The notes: a model not told the origin generated them from the letters alone. 64,000 bases of DNA from an uncultured Chthonomonadaceae bacterium (GCA_963817895.1 CAWFQB010000001.1:800001-864000); one strand, 5' to 3'; shown: positions 2,064 through 10,377, numbered from the stretch's first letter. Numbers and translations are program-made.

Positions 2064-3878
2064 ATGGTAATGGCACGCAAGAGTCTTGGCGACTATATGC
2101 TCGAAAAGCAGTACCTTACCGAGACGCAACTTGAGGAGGCCCGCAAGGCGCAGCAGAGCACGCGCGGCGACCTTGCCAAAATCCTCGTCGAAATGGGCGT
2201 GGATGGCCGCAAGGTGTACGAAGCGAAAGCCCATGAAATGGGCGTCCCGTTTGTAGATTTGTCTAAATTCAAGCCCGAACCCGGCGCGATCAACATCGTG
2301 CCGAAGCACGTCGCCACGCGGCACAATGTGCTTCCCCTTCGCAAGCAGGAGCAAGTGTTGTGGGTCGCGATGACCGATCCCAACAACATTCAGGCCTCGG
2401 ATGACCTGCGCCTGGTTTCGCGCTGCACCATCAAGGCCGTCCTTGCCCCGCCCACCGACATTGAGGACGCCATTGGCCGTAATTACGGCAGCGATCTTGC
2501 GCCCGAAGCCGTTACCGGCGCGGCCACGACCTCACCCGGCATGAACCCTATGGGCAAAGGGGGCATGAATCCCAACAAAGCGGCCAGCAACGACATTATG
2601 GATACGGATGTTAAGTCCGCTATGGCCGAAGTCGTCGCCATTCGGGGAGCGCAGGGGGATGCGGCGAAGGAAGATGAAGCCGCCGCGCTGGAAGCCGAAG
2701 TGGAAGCCGCGCCTATTGTCCGTCTCGCCAACACCATTTTGCAGTCGGCCATCAAAGAGAAAGCGTCGGATATTCACATCGAACCGGACCGCCGCAACAT
2801 TCGCGTCCGTTTTCGTATTGACGGCGTACTGCACGAAGTCATGCAGATGCCCGGTTATATCAAAGCCCCGCTTGTCGCCCGCTACAAAATTTTGTCGGAA
2901 ATGAACATCGCGGAACGCCGCGTCCCGCAGGACGGACGCATCGGAACCCGCTTTGACAACAAAGAATACGACCTGCGCGTGTCGTGCCTGCCCAGCCTGC
3001 ATGGCGAAAAAATCGTTATGCGTATTCTGGACAAGAGCAGCGTTATGCTCGGCATGAACAAACTGGGTTTTACGCCCGAAATGCAGACGCAGATTGAGGA
3101 ACTGGCCGCGCAGCCGAACGGAATGTTGTTGTCCACCGGCCCAACCGGATCGGGCAAAACAACCACGCAATATTCGCTGCTGAACAAACTCAACGACATT
3201 GAAAAGAACATTCTCACGGTAGAAGACCCGTGCGAGTACCAGTTGAGCGGCATCACGCAGGTACAGGTGAACAAAAAAGCCGGCCTGACGTTCAGTTCCG
3301 CGTTGCGCTCGTTCTTGCGGCAAGACCCGGACATCATCATGGTCGGGGAGATGCGCGATCTGGAAACGGCGGAAATCGCTATTGAATCCGCGCTTACGGG
3401 CCACCTTGTGCTTTCCACGCTGCACACCAATGACGCGCCCTCGGCAACGATTCGTTTGATTGATATGGGCATCGAGCCGTTCCTTATCTCGGCCACCATC
3501 ATCGGCATCATGGCGCAGCGGCTTGGACGGCGCATCTGCTCCAACTGCAAAGAGTATTACGAGGTTCCTGCCAGTGACCTGCGCCGCTTCGGTTACAAAG
3601 TGACCGACCCGAACGAGATGGTGCAACTGGCGCGCGGCAAGGGCTGCGAAATGTGCCGCAACACCGGGTATAAGGGCCGCGTCGGGTTCTACGAACTGAT
3701 GACGATGAACGCGGAGATGGCGGAAATGGTGGTTCGCCGCGCCCCGCTGACGGACTTGAAGGAAGCCGCCAAAGCCAACGGCATGAAGGAACTGCGCGAA
3801 GACGGTCTGGTCAAAGTTTTGCAAGGCATGACCACGCCCGAAGAGGTTATGCGCGTCGTCTTCACCGCCGGTTTCTAG
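2064..3878 (+). CDS. pilB: Type IV pilus extension ATPase (PilB/GspE family) with MshEN-like N-terminus
   Basis: ASDIHIEP, RVPQDGR, Walker A GPTGSGKT, Asp box TVEDPCE, Walker B LRQDPDIIMVGEMRD, His box GHLVLSTLH, CxxC...CxxC. Confidence 0.95.
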   Translation: MVMARKSLGDYMLEKQYLTETQLEEARKAQQSTRGDLAKILVEMGVDGRKVYEAKAHEMGVPFVDLSKFKPEPGAINIVPKHVATRHNVLPLRKQEQVLWVAMTDPNNIQASDDLRLVSRCTIKAVLAPPTDIEDAIGRNYGSDLAPEAVTGAATTSPGMNPMGKGGMNPNKAASNDIMDTDVKSAMAEVVAIRGAQGDAAKEDEAAALEAEVEAAPIVRLANTILQSAIKEKASDIHIEPDRRNIRVRFRIDGVLHEVMQMPGYIKAPLVARYKILSEMNIAERRVPQDGRIGTRFDNKEYDLRVSCLPSLHGEKIVMRILDKSSVMLGMNKLGFTPEMQTQIEELAAQPNGMLLSTGPTGSGKTTTQYSLLNKLNDIEKNILTVEDPCEYQLSGITQVQVNKKAGLTFSSALRSFLRQDPDIIMVGEMRDLETAEIAIESALTGHLVLSTLHTNDAPSATIRLIDMGIEPFLISATIIGIMAQRLGRRICSNCKEYYEVPASDLRRFGYKVTDPNEMVQLARGKGCEMCRNTGYKGRVGFYELMTMNAEMAEMVVRRAPLTDLKEAAKANGMKELREDGLVKVLQGMTTPEEVMRVVFTAGF

Positions 3879-3917
3879 CCCTCACCCCTAGCCCCTCTCC
3901 CAAGTTTGGGAGAGGGG
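3879..3917 (+). repeat. REP-like element (CCCTCACCCC-N-CCCCTCTCCC-loop-GGGAGAGGGG)
   Basis: Starts immediately after the pilB stop codon; same family as copies at 9017, 38472, 39378, 39518 and 40951. Confidence 0.85.
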
Positions 3918-3965
3918 AACTCTTGTTTTGATGGTGTGCTGCATAGAGAAAGCGCAGGGGCAGCC

Positions 3966-5282
3966 ATGTCGGACGAGGACGCGAAAACCGAACAGCCGAC
4001 GCCTGACCCGTTGCCGGATATAGATGTCCGCTCTGCCATAGCCGAAGTGATTGCATTAGCAGGAGCGCAGGACGCGGCGACTGATTATGAAGACGAACAC
4101 CAAAAACAAGTTGAGGAAGCGCCGATAGTTCGACTTGCCAATACCATTTTACAGTCGGCTATTAAAGAAAAAGCGTCGGATATTCACATCGAACCGGATC
4201 GCCGCAACATTCGCGTCCGCTTCCGTATTGACGGCGTACTGCACGAAGCGATACAGATGCCGGGTTATATTACAGCCCCTCTCACGCGACGGTACAAAGT
4301 CTTAGCGAATGTAAACATCATAGAGTACCGTGTGCCACAGCAAGGCCAGATAGGTACGCGGTATGACGGCATTGAGTACACTCTACGGTTTAACACAGTC
4401 CCAACGCACTACGGCGAAAAGATTATAATTCGCCTTTCTGCCACATCCGGCGCGAAGTTGTACATAAATCAAGTAGGTTTTACGCCCGAAGTGCAGGCGG
4501 CGCTAGAGGATTTGCTGTTCTGGCGACCGGGCATGTTGTTGATTGCAGCAGGAAACGGGCAGGGCAAGACGACCACGCAGTATACGTTTCTGAACCGTCT
4601 GAACTCTGTGGATAAAAGCATTTTTGCGGTAGCCCCCGATTACGATTATACGCTGCCGGGAATTACGCAAGCCACGCTGAACCCCGGTATCGGCTACACG
4701 GCGGAAGCGGCATTAGCGTCTATCGCCAATCTGGACGCGCAAGTTGTCGCGCTGGATCGCTGCCGTTCGCGGGAAGCCACGCAGCTGGCGTTGGGCATGG
4801 CAGCCGCCAACACAATTGTTTTGCAAACCCTGACGGCTTCCAACGCTTTGTCGGCGTTGCGGTATCTGACCGAGAGCGCGGAACGGGGTTTGATTGCGGA
4901 AGGGTTAAGCGGTATTCTCGCCCAAACGTTGGTTCGCCGCCTTTGTTCCAACTGCAAAGTATTTTACGAGGTCACTGCTCAGGACTTGCGCCGTTTTGGA
5001 TACAAAGTGACTGATCCCAATGAAAGTGTGCAGATTGCGCGTGGCACAGGCTGCGAACAGTGCCTCAATACAGGCTACAAAGGCCGTCTCGGATTATTTG
5101 AACTGTTGACGATGAACGCGGAATTGGCGAATATGATTGTTCTGAGAGCTTCTGAGAAAGACTTGAAGGAAGCCGCCAGAGCCAACGGCATGAGGGAACT
5201 GCGCGAAGACGGGCTGGTCAAGGTTTTACAGGGAATAACGACACCCGAAGAGGTTGTACGCGCCGTTCCGATGCGGATGTAA
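3966..5282 (+). CDS. PilB paralog lacking the N1 domain, with degenerate catalytic motifs (pseudo-ATPase)
   Basis: 43 aa identical to PilB (APIVRLA...DGVLHE) and a near-identical C-terminus; Walker A AAGNGQGKT retained; Asp box, Walker B Glu and His box replaced; ORF intact. Confidence 0.85.
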   Translation: MSDEDAKTEQPTPDPLPDIDVRSAIAEVIALAGAQDAATDYEDEHQKQVEEAPIVRLANTILQSAIKEKASDIHIEPDRRNIRVRFRIDGVLHEAIQMPGYITAPLTRRYKVLANVNIIEYRVPQQGQIGTRYDGIEYTLRFNTVPTHYGEKIIIRLSATSGAKLYINQVGFTPEVQAALEDLLFWRPGMLLIAAGNGQGKTTTQYTFLNRLNSVDKSIFAVAPDYDYTLPGITQATLNPGIGYTAEAALASIANLDAQVVALDRCRSREATQLALGMAAANTIVLQTLTASNALSALRYLTESAERGLIAEGLSGILAQTLVRRLCSNCKVFYEVTAQDLRRFGYKVTDPNESVQIARGTGCEQCLNTGYKGRLGLFELLTMNAELANMIVLRASEKDLKEAARANGMRELREDGLVKVLQGITTPEEVVRAVPMRM

Positions 5283-5351
5283 CTGCTTGTGCCGAGTATT
5301 AAATACCCGGCAGGAAAGCGCAAGCATCCTAATGACGCAACTTTCTATTAA

Positions 5352-5453
5352 GAGCCTATCCCGGTAGGCCGGGTACAAAGAACGTACCCGTCTGAGTGGC
5401 CTGCGGCCAAGCGTCCTTCGGACGCAAATGCAATCGCCTGTTGGGATAGGCTC
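5352..5453. mobile_element. ~102-bp MITE with 11-bp terminal inverted repeats and TAA target duplication
   Basis: TAA|GAGCCTATCCC (5352-5362) ... GGGATAGGCTC|TAA (5443-5453); internal hairpins. Confidence 0.65.
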
Positions 5454-5580: not shown

Positions 5581-6609
5581 GGGCCTTGTGCTAGTTAGCA
5601 CGTCATTGTGTGGCCTGTCCTTTGTTCAGTTTGTGCCTTCGTTACGTACAAGAGTTTATCATCACACAAACTCCGCGCGTAACGAAAGGCACTTCCATGA
5701 TAACGCATTTTGACGACTTCTGCTTGTGGGTCTACTATGTGATTGACAGTATCTGGCAAGAAATCGGCAGTCAGTTCACCCATCCCGGCCCCCAATCCGA
5801 GTGCAGTGATGCCGAATTGCTCACGCTCGCCCTTGTGGGCGAGTGCCGGGGGTGGGACAAAGAAACGGAGATGATGCAGGAATGGCGGATGTACCGCCAC
5901 TTATTCCCGCATTTGCCCGAGCGTTCGCGCTTCAATCGTCGCCGCCGTACCCTGTGTCAGGCGATGAACCTGATCCGTCAAGGTGTACTTGGCTTGTTGG
6001 ACTTAGCCCAAGATGGACAATGCTTGCTTGACAGCCTGCCGGTTCCCGTTGTCGGCTTTCATCTGGCTCCGCAGGCGGGCAGCGGCTGGAAAGAACACGG
6101 CGCGACCTTCGGCAAAGTCAGTTCCAAGAAGTGGACAATCTTCGGCTACAAACTGCACTTGTTGTTAGCTGTCAACGGAACTATTCTGGACTTTGAACTC
6201 GCCCCTGCCAACGAAACCGACCTGAGCGTGGGGCAGGAAATCCTGTCGGCCCACGCGAATTTGCTGGTCATGGGCGACAAAGGCTACATCAGTCAGGAAG
6301 CGAAGGAACAGTGTGCCCAACGCAATGTCCGTCTGCTAACCCTGCCGCGTTCCAACCAGAAACAACAGGTTAGTCGCGAAACCAAGTACCGCTTCAACCG
6401 TTTGCGGCAGATAATCGAGACGGTCAATGGGCAACTCACGCAACAGTTCAACGTCGAAACCAATCATGCGCATAGTTTTTGGGGCTTGTGTACCCGCTTG
6501 TACGCCAAGTTGACCGCCCATACCGTGTGCATCTATCTAAACCGCTTGCTCGGCAAGGCAGAGTTCTTGCAGATCAAGGCACTGGCCTTCCCTAACTAGC
6601 ACAAGGCCC
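5581..6609 (+). mobile_element. IS982-family insertion sequence
   Basis: Perfect 18-bp inverted repeats GGGCCTTGTGCTAGTTAG (5581-5598) and CTAACTAGCACAAGGCCC (6592-6609) bracket a DDE transposase; no clear target duplication. Confidence 0.9.
5697..6599 (+). CDS. IS982-family DDE transposase
   Basis: SDAELLTL, SRFNRR, LDSLPVPV, FGYKLHL, GDKGY and RQIIETV motifs. Confidence 0.9.
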   Translation: MITHFDDFCLWVYYVIDSIWQEIGSQFTHPGPQSECSDAELLTLALVGECRGWDKETEMMQEWRMYRHLFPHLPERSRFNRRRRTLCQAMNLIRQGVLGLLDLAQDGQCLLDSLPVPVVGFHLAPQAGSGWKEHGATFGKVSSKKWTIFGYKLHLLLAVNGTILDFELAPANETDLSVGQEILSAHANLLVMGDKGYISQEAKEQCAQRNVRLLTLPRSNQKQQVSRETKYRFNRLRQIIETVNGQLTQQFNVETNHAHSFWGLCTRLYAKLTAHTVCIYLNRLLGKAEFLQIKALAFPN

Positions 6610-6623
6610 TAGTTGTTAGGCCA

Positions 6624-6893
6624 ATGCAGCGCATTGTTATCATTACACGCTTTATGGCGTACACCAATGAAGATACGCAGAAGATTGCGAGCATTTTGGA
6701 TCAAACGGACGGAATTCTAAACCTGCTGATGTATGGCGAAGACGAACCGGGCGAACTTGAGCAGGCGGTGAAATGGCTCGGCACGAAATACCCGGAGTTC
6801 AGCAGCCTGTGGGAAGAATACCGCGTCCACTTGCGGCGTGAAATGCTACAGCAGGTGGCAAAATTACGGAAATGGGCGTATACTGAAATATAA
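6624..6893 (+). CDS. Small hypothetical protein (start at 6624 or 6654)
   Basis: Helical-looking 79-89 aa ORF, co-directional between the IS and pilT; no motif recognised. Confidence 0.45.
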   Translation: MQRIVIITRFMAYTNEDTQKIASILDQTDGILNLLMYGEDEPGELEQAVKWLGTKYPEFSSLWEEYRVHLRREMLQQVAKLRKWAYTEI

Positions 6894-6964
6894 TCGCATC
6901 CGCATCGCAATCATTGGCTTTGCCCGAACAAGCGCGGGCAAAATGTAATCGCCGGAGAAAACAC

Positions 6965-8365
6965 TTGGCAAACAATCCCTACTCCAACCAGCCCGGAGCA
7001 CCCCCGCAGCCGGGACAGCCCCAACAGCCCGGTCAGCAGCCGGGAAGCGGATCTCAACAGGCCGGCGGCTTCGGAGCCGTACCCAACATGTACGGTCAAG
7101 CCCCACCCGTAAACGCCTATAATCCCGGCGCGGGACAGGTTCCTGCCGCGCCGGGTCAACCGGGTCAGCCCGGCCAGCCGGGTATGCCCGTGCCGCAGCC
7201 CATGCCGACCGCGCAAGTCGTGCAGGTGGCATCCGCGAAACCGCAGCCGCTCGACGACGCGCATATTGACGACCTGCTGAACACGATGTTTGAAAAGGGC
7301 GCGTCCGACCTGCACCTTGCGGTCGGTATTCCGCCTATCATCCGCATTGATGGCGCGCTTGTGCCGGTTCCCTATGAGAAGATGTCTCCGCAGCACTCGC
7401 AGCGCCTGATTTACGACATTCTCACGGACGAACAGATACAGCGGTTTGAAACCCATCTGGAACTGGACTTCTCCTATCAGCTTGCGCGCACCGCCCGCTT
7501 CCGCGTGAACGTGTTCCGCGATAAAGGCAACTGCGCCAGCGCGTTCCGCCAGATTCCGCAGAAAATTCCGACCCTGACGCAATTGAACCTGCCCGCCGTG
7601 CTGGAAGAACTGACCCGCCTGCCGCGCGGCCTTGTCCTCGTGACCGGCCCGACCGGTTCGGGCAAGTCCACCACGCTGGCCGCCATGATCAACCAGATCA
7701 ACAGCGAAGTCAGCAAGCACATCATCACGATTGAAGACCCGATTGAGTACCTGCACACGCACCGAACCAGCGTTATCAATCAGCGCGAAGTCGGGCAGGA
7801 CACGCTGGAATTCAAAAACGCCCTGCGCGCCGCCCTCCGCGAAGACCCGGACGTGATTCTCGTCGGTGAAATGCGCGACCTGGAAACCATGCAGATGGCC
7901 GTGTCCGCAGCCGAAACGGGCCACCTTGTGTTCGCCACGCTGCATACCAACTCCGCGGCCACCTCCGTCGAGCGCATCGTGGACTCGTTCCCCGGCGGGC
8001 AGCAGGAGCAGGTTCGCTTGCAGTTGTCCAACAACTTGCAGGCCATTCTCTGCCAGCAGTTGATTCCCCGCGCCAACCAGCCGGGCCGCGTCTGCGCCCT
8101 GGAAATCATGCGCGCTTCCCCGGCCATCCGCAACCTGATCCGCGAGGCCAAAGCGCACCAGATCACAGTCATGATTCAGACCAGCGCCAACCTGGGTATG
8201 CAGACGATGGATCAGTGCCTGCGCGACCTGTACGTGCGCGGAACCATCTCGTTTGAAGAGGCCATGAACCGCGCCATGAACCCGCCGGAACTGGAAAAGA
8301 TGATCAAAACCGTGACCGCGCCGACCACCGGGCCGGGTTCAAGCGGCGGCAATACGCGGTATTAA
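6965..8365 (+). CDS. pilT: Twitching-motility retraction ATPase with Pro/Gln/Gly-rich N-terminal extension
   Basis: ASDLHL, RFRVNVF, GPTGSGKSTT, TIEDPIE, LREDPDVILVGEMRD, GHLVFATLH, AIRNLIRE, GMQT; GGAG upstream of a TTG start at 6965. Confidence 0.95.
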   Translation: MANNPYSNQPGAPPQPGQPQQPGQQPGSGSQQAGGFGAVPNMYGQAPPVNAYNPGAGQVPAAPGQPGQPGQPGMPVPQPMPTAQVVQVASAKPQPLDDAHIDDLLNTMFEKGASDLHLAVGIPPIIRIDGALVPVPYEKMSPQHSQRLIYDILTDEQIQRFETHLELDFSYQLARTARFRVNVFRDKGNCASAFRQIPQKIPTLTQLNLPAVLEELTRLPRGLVLVTGPTGSGKSTTLAAMINQINSEVSKHIITIEDPIEYLHTHRTSVINQREVGQDTLEFKNALRAALREDPDVILVGEMRDLETMQMAVSAAETGHLVFATLHTNSAATSVERIVDSFPGGQQEQVRLQLSNNLQAILCQQLIPRANQPGRVCALEIMRASPAIRNLIREAKAHQITVMIQTSANLGMQTMDQCLRDLYVRGTISFEEAMNRAMNPPELEKMIKTVTAPTTGPGSSGGNTRY

Positions 8366-8487: not shown

Positions 8488-8499
8488 TAGAGAATTGTC

Positions 8500-8976
8500 A
8501 TGCCGATCTTTCAATACACCGTACGGGATCAACCGGGCAAACGCGAACCGGGACATCAGAAGCGGAAGACATCGAAATATTGAAGATGCGCCTTCAGGAG
8601 CAGGGATTTGCCGTAGTAGAGGTCGGTGGGGTTGGCTATAAGCGCGACCGCAGCCGTATGGTTCGCGTTTCCAGCACTGAAGTGCTGGTGTTCTGGATAC
8701 AGTTTTCCATTATGATTGACAAGCAGGTGTCGCTTGTCCACGCCTTAGACATTGCCGCCGAACGCGCCGAATCCCTGCGCTTTGCTTCAGTGTTGAAATG
8801 TATTGCGAGGTCAGGTTTGCGGCGGAACGCCCCTGCATCAAGCCATGTCGCAGTACCCCAACGTTTTTGATGTGGCTTCCGTCGGCATTATTCATGCGGG
8901 CGAAACCGCCAACGCCCTGCCGGACGCCGTACATCGCCTGATACAATTTATGGAGCGTGACCGCAGGCGTGGTTGA
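8500..8976 (+). CDS. Truncated PilC paralog: N-terminal cytoplasmic (T2SSF) domain only, two single-base frameshifts; may be a pseudogene
   Basis: MPIFQYTVRDQ...EAEDIEILKMRLQEQGF...QFSIMID..VSLVHALD...AMSQYPNVF...AGE...RLIQFMERD aligns with the pilC N-terminus; stop before TM1. Confidence 0.7.
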
Positions 8977-9058: not shown

Positions 9059-9120
9059 CTTTAGTGGTTAATAGTTTTTGTTCGTCATCGGGTTTGTAAA
9101 GTTTGCGGAGGAGAATATCC

Positions 9121-10377
9121 ATGCCCGTTTTTCAATATACTGTCCGTGACCAGACCGGAGCCGTTCGCACCGGCACGTCGGAAGCGGAAAATCAGGAGAT
9201 TCTGAAACGCCGCTTGCAGGAGCAGGGCTTTCAGGTCAACGATGTTTCGCAATCCAAAGGCAAGCAGAAGAAGTCTGCCGGAGCCGGGTTTGGCCGCGTC
9301 AAGCTGGGCGACCTTTCGATTTTCTGCCGCCAGTTTTCCACCATGATTGACGCGGGCGTGTCGCTTGTCCGCGCGCTCGACGTGCTGGCGCGAACAGACG
9401 CAGAACCCCAAGCTGAAGCGCATCCTCAAAGAGATTCAGGTTGAGGTCGAATCGGGCGGCACGCTTTCCAAAGCGATGCAGAAGTACCCGAAGGTTTTCA
9501 ACAACCTGTTTATCGGGCTTGTGCGCGCGGGGGAAGTCGGTGGTGTACTCGAAGAATCTTTGCAGCGCCTGTCCCACTTCCTTGAAAAGGATATGGAACT
9601 GCGCCGCAAGGTGAAGTCGGCTATGACCTATCCCGTCATCGTCCTTGTCGTTGCGCTCGCCATCGTCCTCGGCCTTTGTACCTTCATCGTTCCCAAGTTC
9701 GTGGAGCTGTTCCACGACCTCGGCGTGAAGGAACTGCCCGCCATGACGCAGTTCCTCGTGGACTTCAGCGACTTCCTGAAGAACAAGTGGTACATCGGGA
9801 TCATCATCTGCGTGGTGGCATGGTTCGCCGTCAAATACTTTGGAACGACCAAAGTAGGACGGCGCGTGATTGACCGCGTGAAGCTGAAAATGCCCGTCTT
9901 CGGCAAACTGGGCCATAAAATCTGTCTGGCGCGTTTTTCTCGAACGCTTTCCACGCTTCTGGTTTCGGGCGTACCGATTTTGCAGGCGATGGAAACGGTT
10001 GCAGGCACACTTGGCAACGAAATCATTGCCGAAGCGGTTATGAACGCCCGCGCCCGTATCCGTGAGGGCGATAAAATCAACGAGCCGCTGGAAAAAAGCA
10101 AGATGTTCCCGCCGATGGTCGTTCACATGATCAGCATCGGCGAAGAATCGGGCGCTCTGGACCAGATGCTTTCCAAAATCGCCGAATTCTATGAGGGCGA
10201 AGTGGAAGCGCAGCTCGCGTCGCTTACCGCCGCCATCGAACCCATCATGATCGTGCTGCTCGGTATCTGCGTCGGCTTTATCGTTATCGCCATGTTCATG
10301 CCTCTGGTCAGGTCATTCAGAACCTGACGGGCGGCGGCGACGATGAAGCGAAAAAAGCGGGCGGCGACGAAAAGTAA
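9121..10377 (+). CDS. pilC: Type IV pilus platform protein (frameshifts near 9390 and 10310, probably sequencing errors)
   Basis: FCRQFSTMIDAGVSL, AGEVGGVL, SAMTYP, RFSRTLSTLLVSGVP, IGEESGAL, EPIMIV, AMFMP; RBS GGAGGAG. Confidence 0.93.

Follow-up and report, generated by a model that had tools for sequence, protein, structure and literature searches.

The extension ATPases PilB and GspE (PF00437) are the closest described relatives of the gene reported here, and solved structures include Geobacter PilB (5TSG, 5TSH, 5ZFR) and Thermus PilF (5OIU, 5IT5). In the PilB ring, the N2 domain of one chain sits on the C-terminal domain (CTD) of the next (PMC5424180, PMC6858323). The Walker B motif of the family is atypical, with Gly in place of the Mg-binding acid, whose role has passed to an Asp-box Glu (PMC5424180). 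Known controls of pilus extension are separate cofactors or inhibitory peptides; the PilB-binding inhibitory peptides include CpiA from Acinetobacter baylyi and Tip, Aqs1 and Zip from Pseudomonas phages (PMC11656802, PMC13436744). Engineering has produced ATPase-dead forms of PilB (K327A and E391A in M. xanthus, PMC5544727; E295C and E338Q in BfpD, bioRxiv 2020.05.28.120931) and an N1 truncation that keeps the linker (PMC13436744).

The open reading frame described here, named X, has a predicted PilB/GspE fold, Walker A, the Arg fingers and the Zn tetracysteine, but lacks N1/MshEN, the catalytic Glu, the first Asp-box Glu and the His box, and carries Asp in place of the Walker B Gly. Its outcome would likely be the same as that of the inhibitors, namely control of extension at the PilB oligomer (PMC11656802, PMC13436744), whereas X is a full-fold, PilB-derived paralogue encoded beside pilB. 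It resembles a natural combination of the engineered forms, a Walker B-dead and N1-truncated but linker-intact PilB; unlike them, it is natural and conserved, with the whole core remodelled instead of a single point mutated, and dominance varies among the engineered models. Duplicates that keep the fold and the nucleotide site, have lost catalysis and share a ring with an active sibling are familiar from the F1 alpha subunit and from ChlD/BchD. Those are obligate and universal in their own systems, whereas X is patchy and kept sibling-like by gene conversion. The literature searched, from which subscription journals were mostly missing, describes no natural inactive PilB paralogue, and the accessible text of PMC11623550 holds nothing on degenerate copies. 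Control of extension by an inactive PilB that derives from the motor gene itself and is encoded next to it would differ from the known controls, and such copies are natural material for studying the number of active subunits that a PilB ring requires.

Locus layout and anatomy of X

The window analysed is a 64,000-nucleotide stretch from an uncultured Chthonomonadaceae bacterium (genome G000, genus g1), and the host bacteria of this study are known from assemblies alone. Genes follow the order aroE-like, pilB, X, insertion sequence (IS), 89-aa gene, pilT, pilC, pilD and pilins; pilB, X with its parts, the hairpin between them and pilT lie on the + strand. The pilB gene (2064..3878) encodes an intact extension ATPase of 604 aa (MshEN/N1, linker, N2 and CTD) with all catalytic motifs present, and is the parent gene of X and the donor of its conversion tract. 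X (3966..5282) encodes 438 aa, has AGGGG 5 nt upstream of its ATG and shares the MSDEDA start with its orthologue P0003. The frame is unbroken, as a preliminary description of this DNA had reported when it called X a pilB paralogue. In the same assembly, the match of pilC (9115-10368) to the G002 protein is split over three segments that lie in different frames, and the N-terminus of pilT (6914-7350) is likewise fragmented; these breaks are likely indel errors, which makes the unbroken frame of X more notable. The pilT gene itself (6914..8365) lies directly 3' of pilB in genomes without the copy.

Between pilB and X, a GC-rich 11-bp hairpin followed by a T-rich tail (3892..3917) may lower read-through into X. 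It belongs to a palindromic repeat with matches elsewhere in the genome, and the ten terminator-like sites found compare with 7.1 ± 3.0 in shuffled sequence, a count that is not significant. Dispersed palindromic repeats with many genome-wide copies lie on both sides of X (3876-3920 and 5285-5400). An IS with a DDE transposase is located 3' of X (5581-6599); near-identical pieces of it occur in other sequencing runs, where one contig joins 5282 to 6856 without the IS. Among contigs of four sequencing runs, one (X5, record 27) represents a relative's copy of X, covering 3948-4174 and 4515-5316 at about 87-89% likeness.

X carries a PF00437 match (E 2.2e-77) with an N2D and a RecA-like CTD fold and no PF05157, so it lacks the N1 (GSPII/MshEN) domain of PilB/GspE; the Pfam MshEN match lies in PilB only, in line with the absence of N1 noted earlier. 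Against TIGR02538 and TIGR02533, X scores 333/676 and 345/630 bits, far below the cut-offs, while the neighbouring PilB itself scores 642/676 bits, so that no NCBIfam cut-off is reached. X is not filed as a functional PilB because it fails the defining catalytic tests of PilB/GspE. Global alignment gives 56.9% identity to PilB over 436 pairs, which falls to 37% in the core (PilB 345-484) and rises to 75% in the Zn and C-terminal parts.

The anatomy of X follows this mosaic. The N1-N2 linker is retained at X 19-34 (4020..4067), a helix in the predicted structure. At the start of N2 lies the block of 43 consecutive residues identical to PilB that had been described earlier; the alignment run is exactly 43 (PilB 216-258, X 52-94; 4119..4247), and a gene-conversion tract occupies its second part (4170..4247). 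Walker A (AGNGQGKT, 4548..4571) keeps Lys201. All the motif replacements of the preliminary description are present: TVEDPCE has become AVAPDYD in the degenerate Asp box (4626..4646), where the first Glu is lost and the second is Asp; DIIMVGEMRD has become QVVALDRCRS in the Walker B region (4740..4769), where the family Gly is Asp264 (4755-4757) and the catalytic Glu is Arg265; GHLVLSTLH has become NTIVLQTLT in the degenerate His box (4809..4835), with both His lost; and QDGR has become QQGQ. The GKT, both CxxC pairs, DLRRFGYKVTDPNE and ELREDGLVKVLQG are retained as reported, and the tetracysteine Zn site (C327, C330, C363, C366; 4944..5063) is kept in 14/14 full-length copies.

Occurrence, conversion and origin of the copies

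Among 42 family genomes searched, 36 have a readable stretch behind pilB (the other six are G024, G048, G049, G050, G053 and G056). A second copy lies directly behind pilB in eight of these 36, spread over six genera: G000, G001 and G002 in genus g1, and G003, G013, G015, G023 and G054. It precedes pilT wherever the contig reaches that gene; the G003 contig ends before pilT. In the remaining 28 readable genomes pilT follows pilB and no full second copy intervenes, and the copy is found in none of 20 readable loci from two sister families (21 fetched, G027 unreadable; G058 and G060 excluded). Protein searches add seven g1-type proteins (P0003, P0005, P0006, the partial P0007, P0136, P0362 and P0387, of which P0136, P0362 and P0387 were assigned by best match and shared motifs instead of by tree), for a total of 15 copies. 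All copies lack N1 and start near the linker helix; the replacement motifs are the same in all ten g1-type proteins, and all eight genome copies are open frames. A scan of genome contigs returned two loci, and metagenome scans for further loci gave none in one case and one weak locus (L108), without a match to operon proteins, in another.

Several look-alikes were set aside. Another N1-less PilB/GspE paralogue, about 420-480 aa long, distinct from X and present family-wide, has intact motifs in 11/11 loci read (L137-L147); on this ground, loss of N1 alone was rejected as a sign of a dead enzyme. The 1000-aa double PilBs that top the profile search keep the catalytic residues in 27/28 domains, and P0294, P0328 and P0343 are intact PilBs called short. 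A divergent PilB-like gene elsewhere in G000 (L136:5537-7237, contig C4) has GAAASGKT and Ala-Glu for Gly-Glu in Walker B, with the catalytic Glu and both His kept.

The junction between pilB and pilT is a cargo hotspot (L031, L034, L035, L036, L037). Its contents include an extra prepilin gene in G001, Uma2 and YdeI/OmdA genes in G015, small ORF pairs in G013 and G023, and a partial pilT copy in G017 (L037:3768-4202). An 89-aa protein without Pfam or NCBIfam family is encoded in the window (6624-6893) and at L031:4832-5089, L035:7538-7798 and L036:7627-8188; in G015 and G023 its gene follows an ORF that looks ParB-like, without a Pfam match, as in toxin-immunity pairs. This gene was considered as a partner of X and not accepted: it was found in 4/42 genomes, each time near the copy, but not in the other four copy-bearing genomes, and it lies beside toxin/immunity-like ORFs.

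Gene conversion has acted on the ends of the copies. The preliminary description held that the 43-residue block carries many third-position changes, which is true of its first part and fails for its second. Codons 216-232 are synonymously saturated (7/17 identical, pS 0.75) without any amino-acid change, which indicates selection. Codons 233-258, in contrast, are identical to the genome's own pilB at 23/26 (pS 0.16), whereas orthologous pilB genes share 16/26, and 6/26 residues of this segment are different in the G002 copy; the conversion occurred after the split of the G000 and G002 species. A window permutation test was significant in 5/8 pilB-copy pairs against 1/6 control pairs (p < 0.05, uncorrected), with uncorrected p of 0.011 for G000, 0.017 for G002, 0.020 for G013, 0.0006 for G015 and 0.0002 for G054. 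Three of the five tracts lie in PilB 219-257 (G000, G015 and G054, within the 216-258 segment). The last 371 nt of the G013 copy are identical to pilB, where an assembly artefact is possible. Partial gene conversion, once put forward as the alternative to selection, is thus real and explains half of the 43-residue block, yet it acts alongside selection and does not replace it.

Trees of 23 rows agree with this pattern. The N2 and C-terminal parts group each copy with the PilB of its own genome, and monophyly of the copies is rejected in both (p-AU under LG and LG+C20: 0.013 and 0.002 for N2, 0.006 and 0.005 for the C-terminal part). The core, in contrast, groups the copies together (support 100/99 under LG, 92/96 under C20), and the own-PilB topology is rejected jointly there (AU p 0.0008 under LG, 0.038 under C20); in this grouping long branches meet, and three single-pair AU tests do not reject own-PilB placement (p 0.054, 0.151 and 0.077). 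Residues specific to the genome's own PilB are found in the copies at 35/70 positions in N2, 36/77 in the C-terminal part and 16/61 in the core, against 10-13% for other genera. The linker also tends to track its own PilB (specific residues shared in 26/97 cases, against 41/651 for other genera). The copies trace back either to a single ancient duplication, lost many times since and with ends that evolved in concert, or to as many as six duplications in which the same features were lost convergently; either course requires selection.

Residues, selection and predicted fold

Residue counts are given in PilB numbering, with roles taken from PMC5424180 and mapped through Geobacter PilB. The copies invert the normal conservation pattern of PilB. 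Positions that hold a single residue in 95% or more of 35 PilBs are 89% retained by the 15 copies both in the 216-258 block and in the Zn region. The corresponding figures are 39% for the core (where 90/140 positions are invariant among the PilBs), 16% for Walker B and 22% for the Asp box. This mosaic exceeds chance.

The catalytic E429, present in 500/500 ordinary domains, is retained in 0/15 copies. Asp-box E387 is kept in 2/15, while E391 is Asp in nine and Glu in four; in X, E387 is Ala and E391 is Asp. His-box H447 is found in 0/14 and H454 in 1/14, and D290 of the QDG motif in 0/15. R419 of RQDPD is mostly lost among the copies. On the other side, R251, D253, R273 and Q289 are each conserved in 15/15, R489 and the four Zn cysteines in 14/14, and E240 in 12/12. 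Walker A K365 is present in 10/15 copies, including X (K201). Of the Arg fingers (R271 and R286 in Geobacter), R305 is kept in 14/15 and R320 in 6/15, with His in the other nine; X keeps both.

These residues bear on the earlier proposal of a nucleotide-binding, non-hydrolysing subunit. With the catalytic Glu gone from all 15 copies, the second property is probable, the residue roles being those of PMC5424180. Nucleotide binding is plausible for X itself, given its Walker A Lys, both Arg fingers and a new Walker B Asp, but does not hold generally: five copies lack the Lys, which argues that some members can do without binding. One change that the preliminary description passes over concerns the Walker B Gly. 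This residue is present in 500/500 ordinary domains among the matches, a set biased to Armatimonadota and Patescibacteria, whereas the copies have Asp in 12/15, Glu in one and Gly in 1/15, with an acidic residue in 5/6 lineages. The copies may thus have rebuilt a Mg-nucleotide site without hydrolysis, and the exchange of Walker B Gly for Asp together with loss of the Asp-box acids can be tested directly.

That exchange apparently happened more than once. An unrelated N1-less GspE/PulE family (P0264, P0382-P0384, P0388 and P0389, with one member, HLD27902.1, named Patescibacteria) shows the Gly-to-Asp change in 6/6 sequences from three clusters. Like X, this family is N1-less and has lost the His box and the second Asp-box Glu (E391); unlike X, with which it shares about 35% identity, it keeps the catalytic Glu (E429) and the first Asp-box Glu. 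It appears to be a convergent, partial pseudo-ATPase, and it shows that core residues shared by the copies (D428, A451, L462) can arise separately.

It is very unlikely that X is still an ATPase, one that is slow or mechanistically altered and uses the canonical Walker B Asp with some other base. The retained Walker A Lys, both Arg fingers and the acidic residue at the second Asp-box position would suit such an enzyme, and BfpD double-Glu mutants had residual activity in vitro (PMC9765406), which a preprint attributes to contamination. However, both Glu and both His are gone, the catalytic position in X is Arg, and the Lys is missing from 5/15 copies.

The core was earlier described as erased, but it has been replaced by new sequence that is conserved among orthologues and predicted to fold. 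Between the orthologous copies of G000 and G002 it is 78% identical (dS 0.89), with a dN/dS of 0.143 (bootstrap 95% CI 0.076-0.255), compared with 0.130 for the motif-bearing part, 0.174 overall and 0.04 for pilB orthologues; the G000-G001 pair gives 0.306 (CI 0.137-0.508) near saturation. The open frame survived in 0/2000 neutral point-mutation runs at half the G000-G002 distance. In genus g1, the core has therefore settled on a new sequence, which purifying selection preserves about four times more loosely than PilB, and the earlier view that selection maintains X is borne out there. The dN/dS comparison is possible only in g1, as every other copy comes from one genome per lineage, and the signs of selection outside g1 are intact frames and kept motifs.

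This evidence also bears on whether X is a duplicate without function, produced because tandem duplication is frequent at the locus, with ends that conversion keeps young-looking. Conversion is real at the counts given above, the junction gathers unrelated cargo, and partial pilC and pilT copies also occur. The unconverted core, however, is under purifying selection with a confidence interval well below 1; all eight genome copies are open, ten g1-type proteins carry the same motifs, and the Zn cysteines are invariant. This reading is largely refuted for genus g1, and overall we regard it as the least probable of those considered.

The predicted fold of X is intact despite the loss of catalytic residues. 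With 86 sequences, AlphaFold2 (AF2) gave a pLDDT of 91.4, and Foldseek matched the model to PilF/PilB (5oiu_B, E 2.8e-44, TM 0.82, rmsd 2.2). With the 12 copies alone, pLDDT dropped to 66.5 with mostly the same secondary-structure elements, which indicates that the fold confidence comes partly from the PilB rows. Taken together, X looks like a pseudoenzyme derived from PilB.

Ring contacts, inhibitor surfaces and possible roles

Our leading explanation, held at a little under even confidence, is that X is a selected, tandem, N1-less PilB pseudo-ATPase that does not hydrolyse ATP, co-assembles with PilB and damps or stalls pilus extension. It is likely a non-hydrolysing pseudo-ATPase: it has no catalytic Glu, its Asp box and His box have gone, and yet purifying selection keeps the protein and conversion re-matches parts of it to its own PilB. 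From the known chemistry of PilB, a chain without N1 would neither dock through N1 nor receive MshEN c-di-GMP input, and one without the catalytic base would hydrolyse little or no ATP. His-box coupling would be gone, while the linker, N2 and Zn surfaces, re-matched by conversion, would remain those of the cognate PilB. X may then join PilB oligomers through the N2-CTD ring contact, with Mg-nucleotide predicted to be held by the Walker A Lys and the restored Walker B Asp, and mixed PilB-X oligomers could damp extension as a built-in brake on the pilus motor.

The term subunit in the preliminary description presumes that X would sit in the PilB ring. To see whether the degenerate CTD, in which R419 is mostly lost, could still take a PilB N2, PilB N2 was modelled with the X CTD; the model reached a score of 0.82, against 0.01 for the best of three controls (the mark used was reached by 116/157 solved and 2/215 mismatched pairs), with at least 98% of contacts agreeing among runs and a partner pLDDT of at least 90; the score possibly reflects memory of solved PilB rings. 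The conserved blocks had been expected at subunit interfaces, where they fall only in part. Of 26 contact positions on the N2 side, X matches its own PilB at 18, of which 11 belong to the converted tract; on the CTD side it matches at 9/25 only, and across copies at 8-10 of 24-25, no better than the rest of the core. The CTD-face residues are nonetheless conserved among orthologues (20/25 between G000 and G002, 23/25 between G000 and P0003). This mismatch with PilB, combined with the match among orthologues, is the main evidence against a simple account in which X keeps the ring interface.

In BfpD, inter-subunit contacts include D330/D332-R140 and R328-Q203 (PMC9765406). These map to PilB D421/D423-R251 and R419-S307; R251 is kept, R419 mostly lost, and S307 has become Asn in 6/12 copies. 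The open-interface Arg of Geobacter PilB, R455 (PMC5424180), corresponds to the invariant R489. Loss of R419 also raised the idea of a ring-capper that gives its N2 and accepts none; this was weakened by the passing N2-CTD model and folded into the main explanation.

In favour of the brake are the recurrence of the copy behind pilB in 8/36 genomes, the purifying selection on its core, the universal absence of the catalytic Glu, the retained linker, the invariant N2-side ring contacts (R251, D253, E240) with R489, and the tracking of own PilB by the N2 and C-terminal parts (AU p 0.002 and 0.005, LG+C20). In M. xanthus, PilB with a dead Walker A motif has a dominant effect on EPS signalling in the presence of the wild type (PMC5544727). 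Against the brake, catalytic mutants of the extension ATPase BfpD are not dominant negative in EPEC (bioRxiv 10.1101/2020.05.28.120931), and selection to match the CTD face is not visible in the residues compared (8-10 of 24-25, with R419 mostly lost). The Walker A Lys is lost in 5/15 copies, R320 is His in 9/15, and the copy is missing from the site in 28/36 genomes.

In another reading, X would act outside the motor ring, as its own oligomer or monomer, serving as a nucleotide-sensing or signalling scaffold through the partner-binding surfaces of PilB. Both sides of one ring contact have changed together (S307 to Asn in 6/12, R419 lost), new CTD-face residues are conserved among orthologues, the Walker B Gly-to-Asp change suggests a rebuilt Mg site, and ATPase-independent signalling by PilB is known (PMC5544727). 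This separate job would, however, leave unexplained why N2 and the C-terminus track the cognate PilB in each genus, and no partner gene consistently accompanies X; we hold it to be rather improbable.

Inhibitor-binding surfaces suggest a further possibility. The phage inhibitor Tip binds P. aeruginosa PilB at 187-227 (PMC11656802), which corresponds to PilB 221-261 by a mapping of residue spacing only on Geobacter PilB and nearly coincides with the 216-258 block. The Aqs1 patch (F187/P228/P229/L232/I236; PMC13436744) maps in the same way to Geobacter L206/P247/P248/L251/I255 and to PilB L221/M262/P263/I266/L270, and its equivalents match the genome's own PilB in 35/40 cases. X could accordingly be a dead, undockable look-alike that absorbs Tip- or Aqs1-type PilB inhibitors of phages or mobile elements and spares the real motor, with conversion keeping the bait matched. 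The segment with the highest fidelity and the most frequent conversion is the one that nearly coincides with the Tip segment (PMC11656802), the Aqs1-patch equivalents are mostly own-PilB-like (patch from PMC13436744), and both the patchy distribution and a dN/dS about four times that of PilB are in keeping with a gene engaged in conflict; in genus g1 there is, in addition, a PilC N-domain copy without membrane segments. However, the Aqs1 patch is also where the linker docks, promoting PilB-PilB contact (PMC13436744), and X retains its linker, so conservation of the patch is explained without any inhibitor. A bait would have no need of the Zn domain, the C-terminus or the Walker B Asp, yet all three are kept. 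A further point against the decoy is that we know of no PilB inhibitor from Armatimonadota phages. We consider this reading unlikely, and the brake remains the explanation we prefer.

In all three g1 genomes, a short and diverged copy of the cytoplasmic domain from the PilC N-terminus, lacking membrane segments, lies just 5' of pilC (window 8499-8935; L031:8455-8934; L032:~6450-6900); the other loci examined do not have it. In G001 it reads as an open 160-aa frame (T2SSF E 4e-13), and it carries about two indels in G000 and about six in G002, through real change or sequencing error; it is a possible companion of X in g1. A broader and speculative proposal, which we judge improbable as a whole, is that tandem pilB copies have repeatedly become dedicated pseudo-motors: up to six Chthonomonadaceae lineages and the separate Patescibacteria family would have converged, each dropping N1 together with the His box and restoring the canonical Walker B Asp, a residue abandoned by the PilT/VirB11 family as a whole. 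In g1, together with the membrane-less PilC-domain copy, this would form a conversion-refreshed "shadow motor" of dead parts, which slows the pilus or protects it against inhibitors from phages. Further downstream in the same locus (14089-36044), the window contains prepilin-like genes of unusually large size and very large ORFs that match no Pfam family.
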